Source: an uncultured virus (IMG/VR IMGVR_UViG_2695420571_000019) (Duplodnaviria; Heunggongvirae; Uroviricota; Caudoviricetes). Taken from it: a stretch of DNA of 64,000 nucleotides. The notes under the pieces are model-generated. The model did not search any database. It had not been told where the DNA came from and worked only from the letters and a program-made list of their open reading frames with translations. This document shows positions 1,048 through 63,958 of the stretch, in pieces; the first letter of the stretch is position 1, and each line of letters starts with the position of its first letter. A program made the position numbers and the translations under genes. Where the stretch lies: IMG/VR virus record IMGVR_UViG_2695420571_000019; one strand, given 5' to 3'.

Positions 1048-1075
1048 CTCGGCTTAACGGCCGGGTTATTTTTTT
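1047..1075 (+). terminator. rho-independent terminator after integrase
   Basis: ACTCGGC-TTAACG-GCCGGGT stem followed by TATTTTTTT. Confidence 0.75.
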
Positions 1076-1196
1076 GTCCATTTCCCGAAGTCCCTACGCA
1101 TCTTAAGTGGCAGCCGAAAAAAAGTTACGTAATCTATGTCGCAAAATCTAAGGTAGCCTACCCATTATATAAGTGTAGGGATAAAAACAAGAAAAA

Positions 1197-1277
1197 GTGT
1201 CCGTTTTGGGAAGTTCCTTTGCAGTTATTAATGAAAAGGTTGCGCCAATCCGGAAGTCGATACGCAGTTACTAATGA
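1197..1277 (+). promoter_or_regulatory. tandem phage-specific promoter-like motifs upstream of the replication operon
   Basis: GTGTCCGTTTTGG-N10-TGCAGTTATTAATGA (1197-1234) and GCCAATCCG-N10-CGCAGTTA (1244-1270); both recur at 12845 and/or 27650-27734. Confidence 0.65.
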
Positions 1278-1348
1278 TGGGAGAATATTACGCTGAATTG
1301 TGCGGTTTGTAAAAGTCGCGGGCATTATCTATTGAGGGAGGCTTAGTA

Positions 1349-9986: not shown

Positions 9987-11000
9987 ATGCCGACTTTAAC
10001 ACTAAACGGACGCCACGTCGATGTAGATATCCGATATGAACTCGAACAATTCGAATGGACTCGACCTACCTGGACGGAAGACCGGTTGCTCGCAGCCAGT
10101 CCGTTCCGTTACGATCGAACGCCAAGCTTCTACGTATATCTCGAAGATACAGCGTCCGCAAAGGCCGGCTACTGGGGCGATTCAGGCGCTTATGATGCCG
10201 AGTTTGCGCGCGGCGGGTTCGTTAAATTACTCGCTTTCCTGCGCGCTGAAACCGAAGACGAAACTGTCGATTATTTATTGGACGCGTATGCACCGATGGC
10301 TAAAGACGGACGCCTAACGCTTCGCCTTCCGAAACTTAAAGCCGTAGCAAAACCAGAACCTTTGCCGGAATCTATGCTGGCGGACGTTCAGGCCGGACCT
10401 AACGACTATCTAACCGGACGCGGCATATCGGCTGAAGTACAGCGCGAGGCTGACGTGGGTCTTGTCGGAAATGCGGTCGCGATTCCGTGGCGTCTGCCTA
10501 ACGGGCGACTCGCTAACGTGAAATATCGATCAACGTGCGGCAAGGCTTTTTGGTACGTAAAAGGCGGATGGCCTATTCGCGATTTAGTCTACGGAATGGA
10601 CCTCGTTTATGCCAGGCGGCTAAGGCACGCGGTCATTTGCGAGGCGGAAATCGATGCTATGGCGTGGCGTTCGGTCGGGGTTCCGGCGATTGGAACCGGC
10701 GGCAGCGCATTTAATTTGAAAAAGGCGGACATAATTACGCAGTCACCTATCGAATATTTAACGGTGGTTACAGATAACGACAAAGCTGGCGATAAATTAC
10801 GTGCGGCGATTGAGCGTTATTTAAACGGAAAGGTGCGGCTTGCGCACGGTTATATAACGGAGGTGAAAGACGCTAATGAGCTTCTAGTGGCGCGCGGTGC
10901 AGAGGCGTTGAGAAACGTTTATGATCGTGCGGAGGGCGTACGTACTGTATTACGTGTCGGTTCGGGAATTTCCGAACTTCAGGTCGGCCGGAGGTTCTAG
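9987..11000 (+). CDS. DNA primase (Toprim)
   Basis: 'ICEAEIDAM', 'TDNDKAG', 'KDANE'. Confidence 0.88.
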   Translation: MPTLTLNGRHVDVDIRYELEQFEWTRPTWTEDRLLAASPFRYDRTPSFYVYLEDTASAKAGYWGDSGAYDAEFARGGFVKLLAFLRAETEDETVDYLLDAYAPMAKDGRLTLRLPKLKAVAKPEPLPESMLADVQAGPNDYLTGRGISAEVQREADVGLVGNAVAIPWRLPNGRLANVKYRSTCGKAFWYVKGGWPIRDLVYGMDLVYARRLRHAVICEAEIDAMAWRSVGVPAIGTGGSAFNLKKADIITQSPIEYLTVVTDNDKAGDKLRAAIERYLNGKVRLAHGYITEVKDANELLVARGAEALRNVYDRAEGVRTVLRVGSGISELQVGRRF

Positions 11001-11242
11001 CCCTCCGTTTCGTCGCCGGATACCTCTACCCACTCGTATAAGTCTTCGAGTCTACAGCCGAGTGCACGAGCGATATTATAGGCGAGCTCGATATTCGGTA
11101 TATTGCGAAGACTGGCGTAATCAGAAATACGCGATTTATCTAGTCCGACCTTGGCTGCGAGTTGCGCGTGTTCAATTCCGATATCTTTGCATAATTCGGG
11201 TATCCGGCATTTGCCGACCTTAAACGTAATAAACACCTCCAT
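10997..11242 (-). CDS. XRE/Cro-family HTH regulator, divergent from aimR
   Basis: 'HAQLAAKVGLDKSRISDYASLRNIPNIELAYNIARALGCRLEDLY'. Confidence 0.8.
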   Translation of the reverse strand: MEVFITFKVGKCRIPELCKDIGIEHAQLAAKVGLDKSRISDYASLRNIPNIELAYNIARALGCRLEDLYEWVEVSGDETEG

Positions 11243-11310
11243 TTCGTAAAGGTGTCTTATACATTGTATATTATTGTCTTCTCAATTTCCATAATTACAG
11301 AAAAAAATTA

Positions 11311-11340
11311 TTGACTTATCGATAAAGAGATAATTATAAT
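11311..11340 (+). promoter_or_regulatory. sigma-A promoter of aimR
   Basis: TTGACT-N18-TATAAT; palindrome TTATCGATAA at 11316-11325. Confidence 0.7.
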
Positions 11341-11407
11341 TAGGGTAAGAGAAATCACCAAAGATAATCTTCATTACACTCGATATGTAGAGGGGGGTCT
11401 TTACATA

Positions 11408-12634
11408 ATGAAAGACGCAAAGGCTTTTTTGTTTGATAAAATAGAAGATAGAGACGATTTAACTAATGAAACGTTGCTGAGGGTATTGGATGTAAGTTCG
11501 AGGCAACTTACTTATTTAAGAAACGGACAGAGGAACCTTACCTTTCACCATATGCTTAAAATTTGTATGCTTGTCGAACCGTCTGACTACAAAAGTTTAA
11601 TGCGCGAGCTGTGCCCATCACTTTCCACAGACAACTGCATCAAGAATTCATTTGAATATGCTGCCGTTACAAGAGATTTAGTTTTACTTGAGAGGCTTTT
11701 AGAAGTTCACGCAAATGAAAGGGGTACTGTCGGCGAGTATGTTCGATTTTATTCTTTCTTATTCAAGTATATGAAAGGCGAGATAAAGTTTTATATGCTA
11801 AAAGAAAGCCTTTTCGAATTCCGAAAATCAAGTGCACCTACTCTTAGAATACTAGTTGATATTTATGATTGTCTGGCAGACTTAATAGAAGGAGACTGTC
11901 TCGATGTTCTTGAAAAGTCAAAAGCTATTGGTGAAAGCATAAGAATGCTGAATAATAGAAATTACCCCTTAATGAAAGAGTTTTATGCTTACCGTCTATC
12001 TGAAATACTTGCCCACTCCCACCTACAACTAAACAATCTAGAGTCAGCAAGAAAATACGCTAACATTCTTATACACGCAAACATAAATAAGAGGATTGAG
12101 TCAGATTCTTTTTATGTCTTAGGAATGTCCTATTTATTAAACGATCAGGAAAAGTGTTTACTATTTTTGAATAAAAGTTATTCTATAGCAAAGGAACTCG
12201 GAGGGATTTATGAGTCACTAGGACACTTCAATCTAAATTTTGCAAAATTACTTCTGAAAAACGAACTCGATGAAGGATCTCACCTCTCACTAGTAGCGTT
12301 ACAAAAATTAATCAACGGAGAAAGTTCGTTCCATAACGAATATTCCAACCTGATCAGTATTAAAGATCCTCAATTCATTCAGTATGCGGAAAGTTATAGA
12401 AGTAAAGAAGACAGAATAAATAAATTTCTTGATTTTGTGTCCAAATCTCAATATTACTTTGCAGTTATTATTGTAAGAGATATTATAAACACGGGGGAAG
12501 ACTCCCAGTTTGTAACTTCTCTTATAAATCTTAAAAATAACAGAGAAGAAAAAGGAGATGTTTTGTTTGAAGAAGATTTTATTCGGAGTTTTAGGGTTGG
12601 TAGCGATTATCAGCATAGGATTGTTTGGCGTTGA
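11408..12634 (+). CDS. aimR: arbitrium peptide receptor AimR-like (RRNPP family, HTH + TPR)
   Basis: 408 aa, AT-rich, N-terminal HTH-like region, 'IKNSFEYAA' and TPR-like helices; its 3' end overlaps a signal-peptide microgene. Confidence 0.85.
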   Translation: MKDAKAFLFDKIEDRDDLTNETLLRVLDVSSRQLTYLRNGQRNLTFHHMLKICMLVEPSDYKSLMRELCPSLSTDNCIKNSFEYAAVTRDLVLLERLLEVHANERGTVGEYVRFYSFLFKYMKGEIKFYMLKESLFEFRKSSAPTLRILVDIYDCLADLIEGDCLDVLEKSKAIGESIRMLNNRNYPLMKEFYAYRLSEILAHSHLQLNNLESARKYANILIHANINKRIESDSFYVLGMSYLLNDQEKCLLFLNKSYSIAKELGGIYESLGHFNLNFAKLLLKNELDEGSHLSLVALQKLINGESSFHNEYSNLISIKDPQFIQYAESYRSKEDRINKFLDFVSKSQYYFAVIIVRDIINTGEDSQFVTSLINLKNNREEKGDVLFEEDFIRSFRVGSDYQHRIVWR

Positions 12635-12686
12635 GATGGTAGACAGTTCGTCAGTAGAAACAGCAGCGAATCAACTTGGAGGATAA
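12567..12686 (+). CDS. aimP: arbitrium pre-pro-peptide AimP (39 aa; predicted mature peptide ANQLGG)
   Basis: AAAGGAG RBS, TTG start, MKKILFGVLGLVAIISIGLFGVEMVDSSSVETAANQLGG*; signal peptide, acidic pro-region and VETA|hexapeptide. Confidence 0.85.
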   Translation: MKKILFGVLGLVAIISIGLFGVEMVDSSSVETAANQLGG

Positions 12687-12695
12687 TATGAGACA

Positions 12696-12732
12696 AGACA
12701 CGACCCAAAGGTCGTGTCTATTTATTATCTTT
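12696..12732 (+). terminator. terminator after aimP
   Basis: Perfect 10-bp stem AGACACGACC-CAAA-GGTCGTGTCT followed by an AT/T-rich tail. Confidence 0.75.
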
Positions 12733-12844
12733 CGTATCGGAACAATCAGGAATTTTATTGGGTTTGTTCATTTTTGAAAAATACTGAATCTTTCATGTTA
12801 GTATTCAATTAAGAAATAAAAACAAAAAAAAATCTTCAATTTAT

Positions 12845-12882
12845 GTGTCCGTTTTGGAATGAGTATGTGCAGTTATATATGA
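12845..12882 (+). promoter_or_regulatory. phage-specific promoter-like motif upstream of the sigma-like gene
   Basis: GTGTCCGTTTTGG-N10-TGCAGTTATATATGA. Confidence 0.65.
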
Positions 12883-12885
12883 GAG

Positions 12886-13530
12886 GTGATTTTGTTGAAA
12901 ACAAACAAAAACTTAATAGTACTTATCGAGAAATATCAAGAGACAGGAGACTCGTGTTATTTCGACCAGGTATTTGATCATTTCCAGTATTTGATGAGAG
13001 GTATTGCATTGAAATATACCCGCGATTGTCAACTGTTGTACGATGATCTGATAAGTGTTCTATATGAAAAGATGTGGGAATGTCTTAAAAATTTTGACTC
13101 AAGAAGGACAGGCAATCTAGAAAACCACTTAAAAGTTCGACTATTTAGAAGTGCTATAAATTTTACACAAAGTAAGCAGTTGACGTATATAAAAAAGAGA
13201 ATACCAATGGATACAACTGCGGAAGAGAATGCTGCAACATTCGAATCCGGCGAAGCTATCCGAATTGAGGATTACGTGGTTTCTAGAGTAGACGGAGAAA
13301 TAAAAACGGACCAAGATAAGCTGCAACTTATCAAGGCCCTAACAGTAAATTCCGATGCCGTAACGACTGCAATCGTTAATGAGCATCTTTCGAGTGAGCG
13401 ACCTACATACGCTTCGATCGGCAGTAAGGTAGGCGTTCACTACAAAAAAGTAGAACGTGTGATCAAAGGTTTAGCGAAAAATTACGACGCTTCTCAACAC
13501 GGCGAACTTAACGCTTTTCTATCTGTATAA
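12886..13530 (+). CDS. sigma-70-like phage transcription factor
   Basis: Region-2-like 'YDDLISVLYEKMWECLKNFD' and C-terminal HTH 'TYASIGSKVGVHYKKVERVI'; true start may be TTG at 12892 or 12895. Confidence 0.7.
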   Translation: MILLKTNKNLIVLIEKYQETGDSCYFDQVFDHFQYLMRGIALKYTRDCQLLYDDLISVLYEKMWECLKNFDSRRTGNLENHLKVRLFRSAINFTQSKQLTYIKKRIPMDTTAEENAATFESGEAIRIEDYVVSRVDGEIKTDQDKLQLIKALTVNSDAVTTAIVNEHLSSERPTYASIGSKVGVHYKKVERVIKGLAKNYDASQHGELNAFLSV

Positions 13531-13672
13531 CACGCTATACGTAACTAGGTCCGAGGACGTTCGTTACTCCTCTATAATACAATTCGTTGCCAACGGAATC
13601 AAGCGAACACTTTACGAACGCATCCCCGCGACCTAGTACGATAATCTCAATTAAAACGGAGGCTAACGTACT

Positions 13673-13828
13673 ATGACTACTTTAAATTTACCCAATCTTA
13701 ACGAAATCCAAACGTTAATCGCGCTAGATGAGCGCAAACTTACCGAAGTTATTTATCAAGGCGCATGGCCGCACGACGAAGATCCGGCCGATTACTATCC
13801 GGCCATTAAGGCGGTGCGCGTCGGATGA
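13673..13828 (+). CDS. hypothetical protein (51 aa, not in ORF track)
   Basis: GGAGG RBS, MTTLNLPNL...AVRVG, ATGA overlap with the next gene. Confidence 0.6.
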   Translation: MTTLNLPNLNEIQTLIALDERKLTEVIYQGAWPHDEDPADYYPAIKAVRVG

Positions 13829-27602: not shown

Positions 27603-27649
27603 GCGTCCAGGCTACGAACTTTATACGCATCTATTTATGAGGAAAACGT

Positions 27650-27737
27650 GCCAATCCGATACCTAACCTCGCAGTTATATATGAGGACGGAAAAATGTGT
27701 CCGATTTGGCGGCTGACCTTGCAGTTATATATGAGGA
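27650..27737 (+). promoter_or_regulatory. tandem phage-specific promoter-like motifs before dut/thyX
   Basis: GCAGTTATATATGAGGAC occurs twice, preceded by GCCAATCCG and GTGTCCGATTTGG respectively. Confidence 0.65.
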
Positions 27738-28553: not shown

Positions 28554-29375
28554 GTGGCGGAAACCAAAATGAACGTACAGCTACTCGCACATACGCAATT
28601 GAGCGAAAAGTTTTATCGCTCTCTCAATTACGGAAATTATGATGTTATTCTCGGATGTTTTGACGGTAATCACGTCGAAGATCACGATGTAACCGACGGC
28701 CAAGCGGTCGCCTTAACCGCAATCAGATCGTGCTACAGCGCCAACAAACCGACCGAAATCGTCTCAAAGGAAGGCGCCAAGTATTTCGGCTCCAAAGCGT
28801 CAGATGGCGGCGCAGGCACGGACGCCGACCGGTTATTCCGACATATCGTCCGTTCGGGCCATTCGTCGACCCTTGAGCATATCTCGTTCACCTTTGCGAT
28901 TGAAGGCGTCAGCCGGGCGTTATTGGCGCAACTTACGCGGCATCGCGCAGGTTTTAGCTTCAGCGTCCAGTCACAGCGCTACGTACGAATGGGAAGCGAT
29001 GATAAGATCGGCGGGTTCGATTATGTATTGCCGGATAAGGTTAAGACCTGCACGAAAGAATTAGATTTATTCGGAGGAGGCGACGCCCCGTTTAACGCGA
29101 GAGAGATATTCGAAAATGCTCTACGTGATATACAGGATGCTTACGATCACTTACGCGAAATGGGCGTTCCAGCAGAAGACGCGAGAGCCGTCCTACCGAA
29201 CGCAGCCGCAACCAATCTCGTAATGACTGCGAATCTGACCGCGTTGCTTTCGTTCTATTCTAAGCGGAAACCCGGAAAAGGCGCACAGGCGGAAATTACC
29301 GAATTAGCCGAAGCGCTAAGACGCGAAGTGGTCGACGTGGAACCGTGGACTTCGCAGTTTTTCGAGGAGGTGTAA
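28554..29375 (+). CDS. thyX: FAD-dependent thymidylate synthase
   Basis: 'GHSSTLEH', 'RHRAGFSFSVQSQRY', 'EDARAVLP'. Confidence 0.93.
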   Translation: MAETKMNVQLLAHTQLSEKFYRSLNYGNYDVILGCFDGNHVEDHDVTDGQAVALTAIRSCYSANKPTEIVSKEGAKYFGSKASDGGAGTDADRLFRHIVRSGHSSTLEHISFTFAIEGVSRALLAQLTRHRAGFSFSVQSQRYVRMGSDDKIGGFDYVLPDKVKTCTKELDLFGGGDAPFNAREIFENALRDIQDAYDHLREMGVPAEDARAVLPNAAATNLVMTANLTALLSFYSKRKPGKGAQAEITELAEALRREVVDVEPWTSQFFEEV

Positions 29376-31888: not shown

Positions 31889-32278
31889 ATCGGGAAAGTC
31901 AAAGTCGATCTACACCGAAAGGAACGCGAATTCGACGCAACCTATGCGCTCGATAACGCAGAAGGCGTCAAGTTGTTGCTCGCCGATTATCAGAAGTTCG
32001 TTAGCCGGAAGCGTTGCGGAGATTATGACGCGGCGACGATTCTTATCGATATTCACAAAGCGCTTGATTTAGCGAATTTAACGAACCGCCAGCGCCAGGC
32101 GATAGAGCTCGTTTATTTCGGTGAACTAACGCAAGCCGAGGCGGGCGAACGGATGGGTATTACGCAAAAGAATGTTAACGAGACGCTAGATCGATCAGTT
32201 GAAAAGATTGCGGATATTTACTACTACTGGGCGAGCCATAACGAAGGGTACACGATAGGAGGGCGAAACGTTGGATAA
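31889..32278 (+). CDS. sigma-70 region-4 HTH protein (candidate late regulator; probable ATC start)
   Basis: 'LTNRQRQAIELVYFGELTQAEAGERMGITQ'; frame open back to ATC 31889 after GAAAGGGG. Confidence 0.75.
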   Translation: MGKVKVDLHRKEREFDATYALDNAEGVKLLLADYQKFVSRKRCGDYDAATILIDIHKALDLANLTNRQRQAIELVYFGELTQAEAGERMGITQKNVNETLDRSVEKIADIYYYWASHNEGYTIGGRNVG

Positions 32279-38198: not shown

Positions 38199-38519
38199 AT
38201 GAGCAATGATTTTTCATGGTCATGCGTTGGTCTAACGTGTATCGCGAAAGGGATTCGCAAAGAGGAAGCGATGTGGTACATCGAAAAGGCAGGCGATCAA
38301 ATGGGCTATATTGAAGCAACGACTTCCCTCCGAGCATTACTACATCGTTCATATTTCGAAGACTGCCGGAGTATCGCGGATTTCATTTCGAAAGTAAAAC
38401 GAGATACGGACGGTTTGGAAAGAGAATCTTGTTTTCGCTTTTTGAATGAAAATGTCGGAGCTTTGGCGATTAGGTTCGTGTGGATTCTGATGAACAACGA
38501 AAAAGCACCGCAGTCTTAA
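38199..38519 (+). CDS. hypothetical protein
   Basis: GGGGAG RBS, 106 aa. Confidence 0.55.
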   Translation: MSNDFSWSCVGLTCIAKGIRKEEAMWYIEKAGDQMGYIEATTSLRALLHRSYFEDCRSIADFISKVKRDTDGLERESCFRFLNENVGALAIRFVWILMNNEKAPQS

Positions 38520-39067
38520 ACCTCGATGCTTTCATAAGCTTCCGATATTTCATCGGCCGTTATTCCGATGTATCTCAGCGTTTCGCGCTCGCTTGAGTGT
38601 CCGAGTATAGACATAATACGCGTAATATCAACGCCGTTTTCGTGTAGCCGATAGCCGAACGTCTTACGGAGCGAATGTGTTCCTATCGCGCCGATTTTAT
38701 CCGCAATGCCGGTCCGTTCGGCAGCGTCGTTGAGTATCCGGTACGCTTGAACGCGGCTTATCGGCTTGCCGCCGCCTTGACGGCTGGCAAATACGTAGTC
38801 TTTATCGTCAGCGTCACTTAGATACGTCTTGATTTCGCGCAACACGGACGAACTAAACGTAATCTTACGCTTTTTCTTGCGTTTCTGCTCCGTAATGACT
38901 AGCGAATCTTGGCCGCGAAGATCCCCGACCTTAAGCGTTAATAAGTCGCTGATACGCAGTCCAAAAGCGGTGCCGAGAGTCAATAACAGACGGTTGCGGC
39001 CGTTTAGTGCGTTCTTCAGTTTATTAAAATCGCGCTTAGATTTAATCGGGAATACTTCGTTAGCCAT
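38516..39067 (-). CDS. small tyrosine recombinase (catalytic domain only, 183 aa)
   Basis: GLRISD, HSLRKT, LGHS, RYIG; promoter TTGACT-N17-TATTAT at 39138-39110. Confidence 0.9.
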   Translation of the reverse strand: MANEVFPIKSKRDFNKLKNALNGRNRLLLTLGTAFGLRISDLLTLKVGDLRGQDSLVITEQKRKKKRKITFSSSVLREIKTYLSDADDKDYVFASRQGGGKPISRVQAYRILNDAAERTGIADKIGAIGTHSLRKTFGYRLHENGVDITRIMSILGHSSERETLRYIGITADEISEAYESIEV

Positions 39068-61900: not shown

Positions 61901-62188
61901 ATGAGCGAAGCGAGACGAAGGAACGACAGGGCGGGGCTCACACGAGCGTTTTCGTTCGTGCCCGGCGGATTCACAGCGGCAGGATTTTTCGATATGTCAC
62001 CTGAGGTAGTCGGCTTGTACGCGTTAGTGGGCGGCGCGGGCTTGGTCTGCATTGGAGCGGCTTGGCTAGAAGGGCGCTTGTTCGGCGGCAAATTTGCGTA
62101 TATTGGAGACGCAGTAAACGGGCTCTTACGGTTCGTCCTGCCGGCGGGGTATGCCGTGTTGCTACTGCGTTTTTTAAACGCGATATGA
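61901..62188 (+). CDS. small membrane protein
   Basis: Two TM segments; AAGGAG RBS. Confidence 0.65.
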   Translation: MSEARRRNDRAGLTRAFSFVPGGFTAAGFFDMSPEVVGLYALVGGAGLVCIGAAWLEGRLFGGKFAYIGDAVNGLLRFVLPAGYAVLLLRFLNAI

Positions 62189-63339
62189 AACGGTTCTTGC
62201 GCAACTTACACGCCAAGCAGACGCTAAAGTACGCCTTTGATGCCGCAGGCCTGTACGCAGCCAAGCGCTTGTCTAACGGAAAAGAAGCGCGCCGATATCC
62301 GAAAATCCATGACGTTGATATTAACGAAGAAAGAACGCGATATGTATTTACGTTACTTAACGGAATGGACCCGAAAGAAATCGCGAAAAAGGAATTTGTG
62401 TTCCGGCAAGTATTCGGACGCAACGTGGAACTAAGCGGCGATCTAAAACGCTATGTATTAACGGTTTATAGCGCCGAGATGCCGGCCGTATTGCGCTATA
62501 ACTTTGCGGAGATTCAACCGGTCATTGAGCGTCACAATCTCGGCATTATCGCGGGCAAAGATCGCCACGGTCGGTATGTTAGCTTCGATTTGTTGACGCA
62601 ACCACATATTCTTATTGCGGGCGAAACGGGAAGCGGAAAGTCAACGCAGCTACGATCGATCCTAACAACGCTGATAAAACAGAACCGGCCCGACCGGCTG
62701 CAGTTATACCTTGCGGACTGTAAGAAATCGGAGTTCCACGTATTCCGGAAAGTCGAGCATGTACAGTGCGTTCTAACGAGCGCAGAAGATATCCGAAGAA
62801 TGTTACGAAGCATAAAACGCGAATTAGATGAGCGCAGCAACCTTACGGAGCAGTTCGAAATAAGCCATATCGATGAGCTCCCGGATGACCGTAAACGACC
62901 GTATATAGTCGTCTGTATTGATGAGTTTCTTCTATTAAGAAAAGACGCCGAGATCATGGACGTATTAGCGGAGCTCGTCGCGATAGGTCGGACGCTAGGA
63001 GTATTCGCGATTCTTTCGATGCAACGGCCGAATGCCAAAACGCTTGATACGACTATTCGCGCAAATCTAACCGTAAGCATGGGCTTTAAGCTGCGCGATA
63101 TAACGGAGGCCCGAATCGTCAATACGCCAGGCGCCGAGAAGCTGGACGTAAGCGGGCGGTTCATAATGGCGGCCGACAAAACCTACGAACTACAGGCGCC
63201 GTATCTCGAAATGAACGAGGCGAAGGCGCTGCTGAATCCGTATTGCGTAATGAAATCACCGACCAAAGACGTAACGCCACCGGCAGCCGAGCCGGAAATC
63301 TTAACGGAAAAGGACGTGTTTATCGATGGCCCTTACTAA
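62185..63339 (+). CDS. FtsK/SpoIIIE-family ATPase
   Basis: 'PHILIAGETGSGKS', 'CIDEF', 'MQRP'. Confidence 0.88.
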   Translation: MKRFLRNLHAKQTLKYAFDAAGLYAAKRLSNGKEARRYPKIHDVDINEERTRYVFTLLNGMDPKEIAKKEFVFRQVFGRNVELSGDLKRYVLTVYSAEMPAVLRYNFAEIQPVIERHNLGIIAGKDRHGRYVSFDLLTQPHILIAGETGSGKSTQLRSILTTLIKQNRPDRLQLYLADCKKSEFHVFRKVEHVQCVLTSAEDIRRMLRSIKRELDERSNLTEQFEISHIDELPDDRKRPYIVVCIDEFLLLRKDAEIMDVLAELVAIGRTLGVFAILSMQRPNAKTLDTTIRANLTVSMGFKLRDITEARIVNTPGAEKLDVSGRFIMAADKTYELQAPYLEMNEAKALLNPYCVMKSPTKDVTPPAAEPEILTEKDVFIDGPY

Positions 63340-63958
63340 CCGAGATAAAGCGATCATTGCGGATCTTAATAAATTTCGCGTAATGGATCGTGATACGATT
63401 GCCGAGCTGCATTTCGGAAATTTGCGCAGACCAAAATACGCAGCCAATAACGTTCTGCTGCGGTTGCTTAGGGACGGACATATTCAGCGATCGACGGCGC
63501 GCCAGCCTTACGTTTACTTTGGCGGCGAAACAACGATGAAAAAGAACAGCGCCAAGATCGATCATTTTCTTGCGATAGGTAACGTTTATAAAGAGATGCG
63601 AGGCCAGTCGTTGGAGTCGTTCTTGGTGGAGCCGAAGTACGGAGAAAAGGGAACGGTCGAGCCGGACATATTTGCGCTATACCGGCGGACGCCTTTCTTT
63701 ATCGAGGTGCAGCGGTCAGTCTATTCGGAAAAACAGATGCGCGAAAAGTTAGACCGGTATGAAGCGTTTTTCCAGTCGGGCATTATTGCGCTGGAAGCGT
63801 GGCAGAATCCCGAGCGGATAATGTTTCCGCACGTACTGATTCTATCGGACACGCGATACGGACTGCCTTCGTTTCCGTTTAAGGTATTCCAGGCGCCGAC
63901 CTTTACTGCGTTTATTCAGTCGATAACAAAGCCGAAAGAAAAGACGCCCGCGAATTAA
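63326..63958 (+). CDS. replication-relaxation family protein
   Basis: 'LTNRD', 'IDHFL', 'EPD...FFIEVQ' pattern; follows FtsK. Confidence 0.75.
   Translation: MALTNRDKAIIADLNKFRVMDRDTIAELHFGNLRRPKYAANNVLLRLLRDGHIQRSTARQPYVYFGGETTMKKNSAKIDHFLAIGNVYKEMRGQSLESFLVEPKYGEKGTVEPDIFALYRRTPFFIEVQRSVYSEKQMREKLDRYEAFFQSGIIALEAWQNPERIMFPHVLILSDTRYGLPSFPFKVFQAPTFTAFIQSITKPKEKTPAN

Follow-up and report, generated by a model that had tools for sequence, protein, structure and literature searches.

The 64,000-nucleotide stretch analyzed here (the window), taken from the uncultured Caudoviricetes record IMG/VR IMGVR_UViG_2695420571_000019, carries a peptide-signaling locus that we read, on balance, as an arbitrium system on a temperate Bacillus phage akin to 268TH002 and phi18-2, in which a phage sigma factor would be the output of the receptor AimR. 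The original prediction, made from positions 11408–12732, had proposed an arbitrium-type lysis–lysogeny system with an unannotated peptide gene, and this claim holds: the AimR–AimP pair is virtually certain to be real, and its carrier is a temperate phage with an integrase at 1–1047 and replication, head, tail and lysis genes. The pair belongs to the known arbitrium kind, and its peptide is unsurprising. The unusual part of the locus, missed by that prediction, is the predicted sigma-factor output together with the regulatory sites around it, a circuit that differs from the three arbitrium outputs described so far. Coordinates of the main features are collected in Table 1.

Curated models, predicted structure and family profiles agree on the receptor. 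The 408-aa open reading frame (ORF), initially described as AT-rich and resembling a helix-turn-helix (HTH)/tetratricopeptide-repeat protein, has a GC content of 34.5% against 47.4% for the window and passes both AimR models, with 166.8 bits against a cut-off of 70 for NCBIfam lysogeny_AimR (NF038310) and 67.9 against 26.7 for Pfam AimR (PF22871). In a fold search with the predicted structure (predicted local distance difference test score, pLDDT, 87.6), AimR structures ranked first and Rap proteins far behind; among the matches listed, the 15 rows with E<1e-5 were all AimR crystal structures or the matching apo entry. A profile built from 13 AimR homologues gave ten matches in the PDB, every one of them AimR. 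The check that had been named for this ORF, a model and structure search, thus came out for AimR. By sequence, the best PDB match reaches E 1e-6 and the protein is remote from the receptors of phi3T and SPbeta, the phages with which the original prediction had compared it; it groups with Wbeta-type receptors instead. In a tree of 60 receptors the window AimR stands among the latter, with the DPPVGM (phi106-type) loci and one SPbeta-type row across a 100/99 branch. Placement alone was used from this tree, and its counts of sigma-type labels were dropped (L078, L079 and L055 were labeled without a sigma gene shown). Since receptors of the B. subtilis group comprise clades 1, 2 and 3, according to the accessible text of 10.1101/2021.09.20.460909, and the other placements were eliminated, the window receptor likely belongs to clade 3a of Kabel et al., a subtilis-dominated clade of non-extended layout, an assignment reached by elimination. 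For the clade 2 Katmira AimR, the accessible part of PMC9232636 names R228, N202 and N273 as the three peptide anchors; R229 and N275 of the window protein align with R228 and N273, and N275 is invariant in 13/13 homologues. The receptor is already catalogued as WP_088110562 in Data Set S1 of PMC9765709 (three differences over the 400 residues shown, compared by eye). Split genes occur at some related loci, aimR in L007 and L057, the sigma gene in L015/L061, through either decay or sequencing error.

The overlapping 39-codon gene missed by the ORF track had been described as AAAGGAG, a TTG start, MKK, a hydrophobic stretch, an acidic spacer and a VETA-ANQLGG end; all of these elements lie where they had been placed, beyond what chance would give. 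Nine bases separate AAAGGAG from the TTG, and an in-frame ATG at 12558 abuts the Shine-Dalgarno sequence, which is where the program-made ORF list starts the gene (42 aa). Its basic N-terminus, hydrophobic core and conservation mark the product as a probable short secreted pre-peptide; the match to Phr_nterm is weak (14.9 bits, below the cut-off of 25). The overlap is typical of the receptor's group, in whose AimR loci 39 of 42 distinct precursors start 59–68 nt inside aimR. Between the window and locus L002, whose AimR is 84% identical, the last ten aimP codons differ by three synonymous and no amino-acid changes, against five amino-acid changes in codons 24–29. ANQLGG is likely the mature signal because the precursors of the closest relatives end in EVA-INAIGG, ELA-INIIGG and EMA-INKIGG, with E-x-A directly before the last six residues in 4/4 peptide types of the subclade. 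It is our best guess for the exact peptide and has a good chance of being correct, with the length inferred; a seven-residue mature form may be made instead. Among the 24 distinct C-terminal hexapeptides of the receptor's group, 13 directly follow an Ala in one or more precursors, and 19 have GG as their last two residues. In the accessible text of PMC8878798, the tested Wbeta signal EIKPGG corresponds to the last six residues of its precursor.

The absence of an RG core from ANQLGG had been taken as a possible mark of a separate channel. This part of the prediction does not survive: none of the 24 hexapeptides carries RG at positions 4–5, and RGA is a signature of clade 2 only, where 74% of peptides bear it (PMC13220667, accessible text). 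Because RGA marks clade 2 alone, its absence is nothing special, and an RG-less peptide as the sign of a new channel was rejected, being the norm in the receptor's group. The channel is likely separate from that of SPbeta, though ordinary. At the place of aimP, the isolated relatives phi18-2 and 268TH002 have no annotated gene in GenBank, and a search of viral contigs for the ANQLGG coding pattern returned only two already known contigs. One 185-nt RNA contig spans 12531–12709, that is, aimP up to the terminator. In the precursors of L044/L066 and L047, the signal SDKVGG is present twice.

Behind aimP the locus follows the arbitrium form, an intrinsic terminator and then a long-spacer palindrome as putative AimR operator. 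The perfect 10-bp hairpin noted earlier is indeed there, with ten pairs and a T-rich tail, and relatives have a hairpin and T tail at the same place in differing sequences. The palindrome GAACAA-N18-TTGTTC is the single match in the window at no more than one mismatch (0.14 expected), a uniqueness that is weak on its own, as 13 of 100 shuffles also had one. Across nine loci its arms are conserved and its spacer sequence varies, and Wbeta has a related GTAAAC-type palindrome of equal spacing behind aimP with a different output gene; the palindrome thus belongs with the receptor. The operator design already published for AimR, in the accessible text of PMC9232636, is a 6-bp palindrome with a long spacer downstream of aimP. 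In relatives, an extended −10 element (TGnTAnnnT) is kept at a near-fixed distance behind the palindrome, which suggests that AimR activates the weak SigA promoter at 12774–12804; a consensus promoter scan did not pick up this promoter. Several loci (L003, L008, L010, L025, L047, L188, L189 and L198) have a third half-site, TGTTY, 8 bp ahead of GAACA, degenerate in the window. In L010, L013, L054 and L189, TTTTCAGAAAAT-like words overlap the −35 region after the operator; they resemble the CodY box, and their match in the window is poor. A second palindrome, AATACT-N14-AGTATT at 12780, was rejected, being present in the window and L001 only.

The next gene, in the position of aimX, would encode the output. 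Downstream of aimP the window has no aimC–aimL pair, no aimX–aimC–aimL module and no sro or other SPbeta genes; the sigma-like ORF comes next. Both region 2 and an HTH region 4 are present in its product, a fold search ranks only sigma factors at the top (best E 2.7e-3), and a profile of the family matches RpoE (E 0.006). We predict that it is a phage sigma factor which binds RNA polymerase. To place this gene in context, 38 viral records chosen by their dUTPase were used, 28 of which carry AimR above the cut-off. A sigma-like homologue (detected with a profile from our own alignment) lies directly behind aimP in 25 of the 29 AimR loci of these records, and the four loci that lack it carry SPbeta-type peptides. 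The order of palindrome, extended −10 and sigma-like gene behind the terminator is likewise the same in 25/29 loci. A near-family sigma profile matched 18/38 records, missing divergent members. In the collection L001–L066, a sigma-like gene follows aimP in 40 of 65 AimR rows (32 distinct records), an aimC-like layout is found in 24 and neither layout in one. Loci L188, L189 and L198 have long glycine-rich peptides and an aimP that does not overlap aimR, yet a sigma-like gene follows, so the sigma output is not tied to one peptide type. Judged by this arrangement, we consider it likely, with little hesitation, that the sigma gene is the direct output of AimR.

A two-box motif upstream of the sigma gene, also present in relatives, suggests which promoters this factor would recognize. 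A matrix built from 12 sites at six other loci, with the window excluded, found seven matches in the window scoring above 15; 50 shuffles averaged 0.26 such matches and never gave more than one. The six highest-scoring matches lie on the plus strand, at 12437 (the best), 27603, 27697, 1197, 1074 and 12845, and the seventh is at 29329. The best site lies inside aimR, ahead of aimP. When the aimR-internal box was compared with the cognate sigma-upstream box in seven types, four mismatches in total were counted against 3.3 per non-cognate pair, and 1 of 5040 permutations was as good, a figure that overstates independence because the patterns were tuned on sequences already seen and the seven types are related. 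The −35 variant tracks the helix type of sigma region 4, and across reshuffled loci (L195 vs L196, L083 vs L208) the box variant follows the sigma type, not the AimR type. Receptor residues vary along with the internal box (F/Y, V/S/T and S/A). From this covariation we predict with strong confidence a sigma-driven aimP promoter within aimR. The promoter stacks at 1074–1331 and 27603–27729 hold the phage's own type together with variants matching the sigma promoters of other family phages, and phi18-2 and other relatives have different mixes; such stacked variants could let the sigma of a related phage act on this one or make cassettes easier to swap.

An antisense RNA of about 270 nt is predicted over the 3' part of the sigma gene. 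Within its SigA-like promoter, TTG and TA..AT are invariant in 8/8 aligned loci; a promoter score of at least 9 is reached in 31 of 33 loci, compared with 18% of shuffles, and in 29/33 the start falls 30–48 nt beyond the sigma stop. A minus-strand hairpin with a T tail recurs within the sigma ORF in three unrelated sequence forms, and in 14 of 15 loci (a subset of the 33) at most one of 40 synonymous recodings matches this terminator. The RNA predicted for the window folds with a z of −4.1, none of 200 shuffles being as stable, and its 5' hairpin has compensatory changes; a comparison of the RNA with Rfam gave no match. Contigs from two RNA-library runs of one study (222/246 and 98/117 records at least 99% alike) span 13328–13567, and a second study contributes one run, with a contig at 13384–13562. 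These contigs are only a lead because they do not give strand, ends or level; differences in their depth and uncovered parts, including most of aimR, were not treated as measurements. The sequence features support the antisense RNA independently of them, and it very probably exists; it probably also damps sigma, a claim we hold less firmly. Between the sigma gene and a 51-aa ORF (13544–13650), long complementary arms enclose the antisense promoter, with apparent conservation and paired changes; one arm overlaps the antisense 5' hairpin, and the RNA might therefore also control the downstream operon for single-stranded DNA-binding protein (SSB) and DNA polymerase. Just upstream of the antisense −35, at 13604–13620, two GTTCG repeats 11 bp apart are kept in the near family and are a possible protein binding site.

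Table 1. Features of the arbitrium locus and of related sites elsewhere in the window
Feature	Positions	Strand	Evidence or remark
Five stacked sigma-type promoter variants, after the integrase and ahead of the early/replication operon	1074–1331	+	copy at 1197 is of the window type
Small XRE/Cro-type HTH gene, divergent from aimR	10997–11242	−	PF01381, 36.3 bits (cut-off 23); position kept in phi18-2 and 268TH002
SigA-like promoter of aimR, TTGACT-18-TATAAT	11311–11340	+	11/12 consensus positions; consensus match only
aimR, arbitrium receptor, 408 aa	11408–12634	+	NF038310, PF22871, fold and profile searches
Predicted phage-sigma-type promoter in aimR, GTGTCCA-14-TTTGCAGTTATT, about 97 nt upstream of the aimP start	12437–12469	+	top matrix hit, covariation
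Shine-Dalgarno sequence of aimP, AAAGGAG	12551–12557	+	sits in codons of the conserved AimR motif KG-x-V-x-FE
aimP, 39-aa pre-peptide, TTG start, 68-nt overlap with aimR	12567–12686	+	sequence and homologues
Codons of the predicted mature signal ANQLGG	12666–12683	+	synonymous-only change vs L002, E-x-A context; length inferred
Intrinsic terminator after aimP, 10 pairs, loop of 4, T-rich tail	12696–12719	+	hairpin scan
Candidate AimR operator, GAACAA-N18-TTGTTC	12740–12769	+	unique in the window, conserved arms
Candidate AimR-dependent SigA promoter: weak −35 TTGAAA, 19 nt, extended −10 TG-t-TAGTAT	12774–12804	+	conservation
Phage-sigma-type promoter directly ahead of the sigma-like gene, autoregulation candidate	12845–12877	+	matrix, covariation
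Sigma-70-like gene, 211 aa, TTG start, aimX position	12895–13530	+	Pfam, TIGR02937, fold, profile
Predicted antisense RNA, about 270 nt, overlapping the 3' part of the sigma gene	13299–13567	−	promoter and terminator conservation, fold, RNA contigs
Intrinsic terminator of the antisense RNA, within the sigma ORF	13299–13339	−	−17.3 kcal/mol, T tail; 0/40 synonymous recodings as strong
SigA-like promoter of the antisense RNA, TTGATT-17-TATTAT	13574–13602	−	predicts a start at 13567
Three stacked sigma-type promoter variants, ahead of the dUTPase gene	27603–27729	+	copy at 27697 is of the window type

In the circuit we propose, sequence analysis supplies the parts, namely AimR as the receptor, the aimP gene, the order of the genes and a set of conserved sites; the bindings, activations and directions of effect are modeled on SPbeta, phi3T and Wbeta and on the geometry of the sites. 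The transcript of aimR and aimP would end at the 12696–12719 hairpin, and AimP would be exported, trimmed to ANQLGG and taken back up. Without peptide, AimR would sit on the 12740–12769 palindrome and switch on the adjacent weak promoter toward the sigma-like gene, whose product would then use its own promoter as positive feedback and fire those of the early/replication and nucleotide-metabolism operons, committing the cell to lysis. Sigma would also fire the aimR-internal promoter and so raise aimP, the signal of lytic cells shutting off AimR in their neighbors as negative feedback. The antisense RNA, driven by host SigA, would soak up leaky sigma mRNA and set a threshold that keeps lysogens quiet; at high peptide, AimR would be off, the antisense RNA would clear the leak and lysogeny would be maintained.

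Several observations weigh against this circuit or parts of it. No curated sigma model scores the sigma-like protein above its cut-off (23.1 against 24 for Pfam Sigma70_r2, PF04542, and 29.2 against 42.9 for TIGR02937), and its relatives fare no better: TIGR02937, a model of the extracytoplasmic function (ECF) superfamily, reaches E<=0.002 in 15/23 family members and exceeds its cut-off in none, and four short-type members match no sigma model. The structure model of the protein is weak (pLDDT 68, predicted template modeling score 0.43). Eleven of the 40 sigma-linked rows of L001–L066 were retrieved with the sigma protein itself, and L078 and L079 are related aimR–aimP loci with no sigma gene behind them. 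A first, broader promoter matrix with an AT-rich background was noisy (17 matches against a shuffle mean of 10.4 at score 13) before it was replaced by the one trained on other loci. The motif patterns were settled after the sequences had been viewed, which, with the kinship of the seven types, inflates the permutation figure, and the aimR-internal promoter is confined to the near subclade, more distant sigma-type loci scoring no higher than 9.2. One of the 15 loci in the antisense terminator control, L188, fails it, and the RNA contigs stem largely from a single study and carry no information on strand, ends or level. In the receptor, the position of Katmira N202, an anchor in the accessible text cited above, is His204.

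The alternative that survives best, in our view unlikely, differs from the proposed circuit at its first step. AimR would be an antiterminator at the 12696–12719 hairpin, letting the aimR–aimP transcript run on into the sigma gene. Antitermination is given as the phi3T mechanism in the accessible texts of 10.1101/2025.11.23.689978 and 10.1101/2025.10.13.681967, and the palindrome starts 20 nt past the hairpin; the extended −10 at its near-fixed distance behind the palindrome is, however, the geometry of an activated promoter, and the two modes need not be mutually exclusive. Less probable still, and in our judgment improbable, is that the sigma gene is a mere neighbor, with a small ORF or RNA in 12688–12890 or the divergent HTH gene as the AimR target and a conventional repressor making the decision. 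The lack of a sigma gene in L078 and L079 fits this, as do the several small HTH genes of the phage and a 29-codon ORF with a ribosome site at 12688–12777. That ORF, however, crosses the terminator and is called in the closest relatives of the window only (the ORF of L002 is unrelated and the others have none), and as a candidate AimX it was rejected for want of conservation; moreover, no antisense HTH pair lies downstream, and a hairpin scan of the window found no terminator between the operator and the sigma gene. Slightly more improbable again is that the sigma-like fold of the 211-aa protein belongs to a DNA-binding regulator, for which the two-box motifs would serve as operators instead of promoters, as the sub-threshold sigma scores and low-confidence model would allow, against which stand the joint presence of regions 2 and 4, fold matches that are all sigma factors at the top, and boxes at −35/−10 spacing whose best copies all face downstream genes.

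More tentatively, and with rather less than even confidence, a large family of 60–75 kb Bacillus prophages may decide between lysis and lysogeny by an activator circuit, with a self-amplifying sigma and a conserved antisense RNA as threshold and without a repressor–antirepressor pair. On this reading, receptor residues would follow sigma specificity, the promoter of the signal gene being written into the coding sequence of the receptor, and stacked promoter variants would let the early operons answer the sigmas of related phages or tolerate swaps of aimR–aimP/sigma cassettes.

In the Rap–Phr cassettes of B. subtilis, a SigH promoter for phr lies inside rap, and the peptide gene overlaps the receptor gene. 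The window locus resembles them in having a receptor-overlapping peptide gene that would be raised by an alternative sigma from within the receptor coding sequence; it differs in that the sigma is phage-encoded and apparently the receptor's own output, closing a loop. Among arbitrium systems, Wbeta has a 34% identical AimR within the same 100/99 branch, an aimP with a TTG start about 65 nt inside aimR, a peptide ending in GG and a similar N18 palindrome after the terminator. Its extended module is aimR–aimP–aimX–aimC–aimL (Kabel et al., 10.1101/2025.11.23.689978, accessible text), whereas the window has a sigma-like gene in place of the small antirepressor, antisense aimC repressor and aimL, and its locus is found within the replication module, after the primase, rather than next to the integrase. 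With SPbeta and phi3T (clade 2) it shares the fold (template modeling score about 0.6–0.7), an Ala before the C-terminal hexapeptide, the terminator, a long-spacer palindrome and the R228/N273 equivalents, but AimR is only about 15–20% identical, the peptide lacks RGA, the spacer is 18 rather than 25 bp, and neither a MazE-like AimX nor sro genes lie downstream. The phages phi106 and phiW23 (clade 1, DPPVGM) share the host group, the AimR family and the terminator and palindrome after aimP; they occupy a separate branch of the tree and have aimC–aimL downstream and a LexA box, neither of which is found at the window locus. Nearest in kind are 268TH002, 268TH007 and phi18-2, of the same phage family and gene order, with AimR 41% identical, another peptide and another sigma promoter variant; in the two records inspected (phi18-2 and 268TH002), an unannotated aimP ends in INAIGG. 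The main text of a phage announcement, PMC9476937, does not mention arbitrium in its accessible part.

Three arbitrium outputs are described in the accessible text of 10.1101/2025.11.23.689978, namely the SPbeta RNA, the phi3T MazE-like antitoxin and the small antirepressor used by about 75% of systems. The same text offers no mechanism for the leftover “generic RP” systems, mostly of clades 2 and 3a; for these the window locus provides a concrete candidate whose sites are placed precisely enough to be mutated, and B. subtilis phages with this layout have already been isolated. That survey tolerated gene overlaps and assigned an aimP to 99% of receptors, so ANQLGG may stand in its supplement. 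Another survey, PMC9765709, looked no further than 50 nt inside the receptor gene and treated receptors lacking a propeptide as possible eavesdroppers; it lists WP_088110562 without a propeptide, which is explained by the 68-nt overlap of aimP. ANQLGG was not found in the literature searched, in the supplement of PMC10075063 or in five supplements of PMC9765709, and the Stokar-Avihail 2019 or Kabel supplement may record it; in the literature searched, INAIGG and INIIGG occurred in unrelated papers only and INKIGG in none. Searches pairing arbitrium with sigma or antisense, which covered listings and the starts of abstracts, returned no paper with this layout, supplements being a place where the gene order may stand, and the word “sigma” is absent from the arbitrium main texts searched.

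The closest viral record, G001, is classified as a provirus, and the kin of the window are the Bacillus phages 268TH002, 268TH007 and phi18-2, with 44–55% of a 19-kb stretch covered at 89–91% identity. The arbitrium locus lies behind the primase in the replication module. The HTH gene divergent from aimR is a repressor candidate and may add repression; its first ATG has no Shine-Dalgarno sequence and GGAGGTG lies just inside the frame, so that the real start may be non-standard, and RNA contigs cover the gene. Four LexA-like boxes were found in the window, none of them within 11000–13700, and an Rfam scan of the window gave no match. Four related proviruses of 64–78 kb, at least 97% complete (G056, G058, G075 and G076), are negative for both AimR and the near-family sigma profile. 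Near the late region, a second, stand-alone Sigma70_r4 protein (32036–32278; 43.7 bits, cut-off 24.1) is a possible late activator. A second, short tyrosine recombinase is encoded on the minus strand ahead of the terminase (38519–39067), and an FtsK and replication-relaxation pair lies at 62062–63958, 268TH007 being described likewise in the accessible text of PMC9476937.

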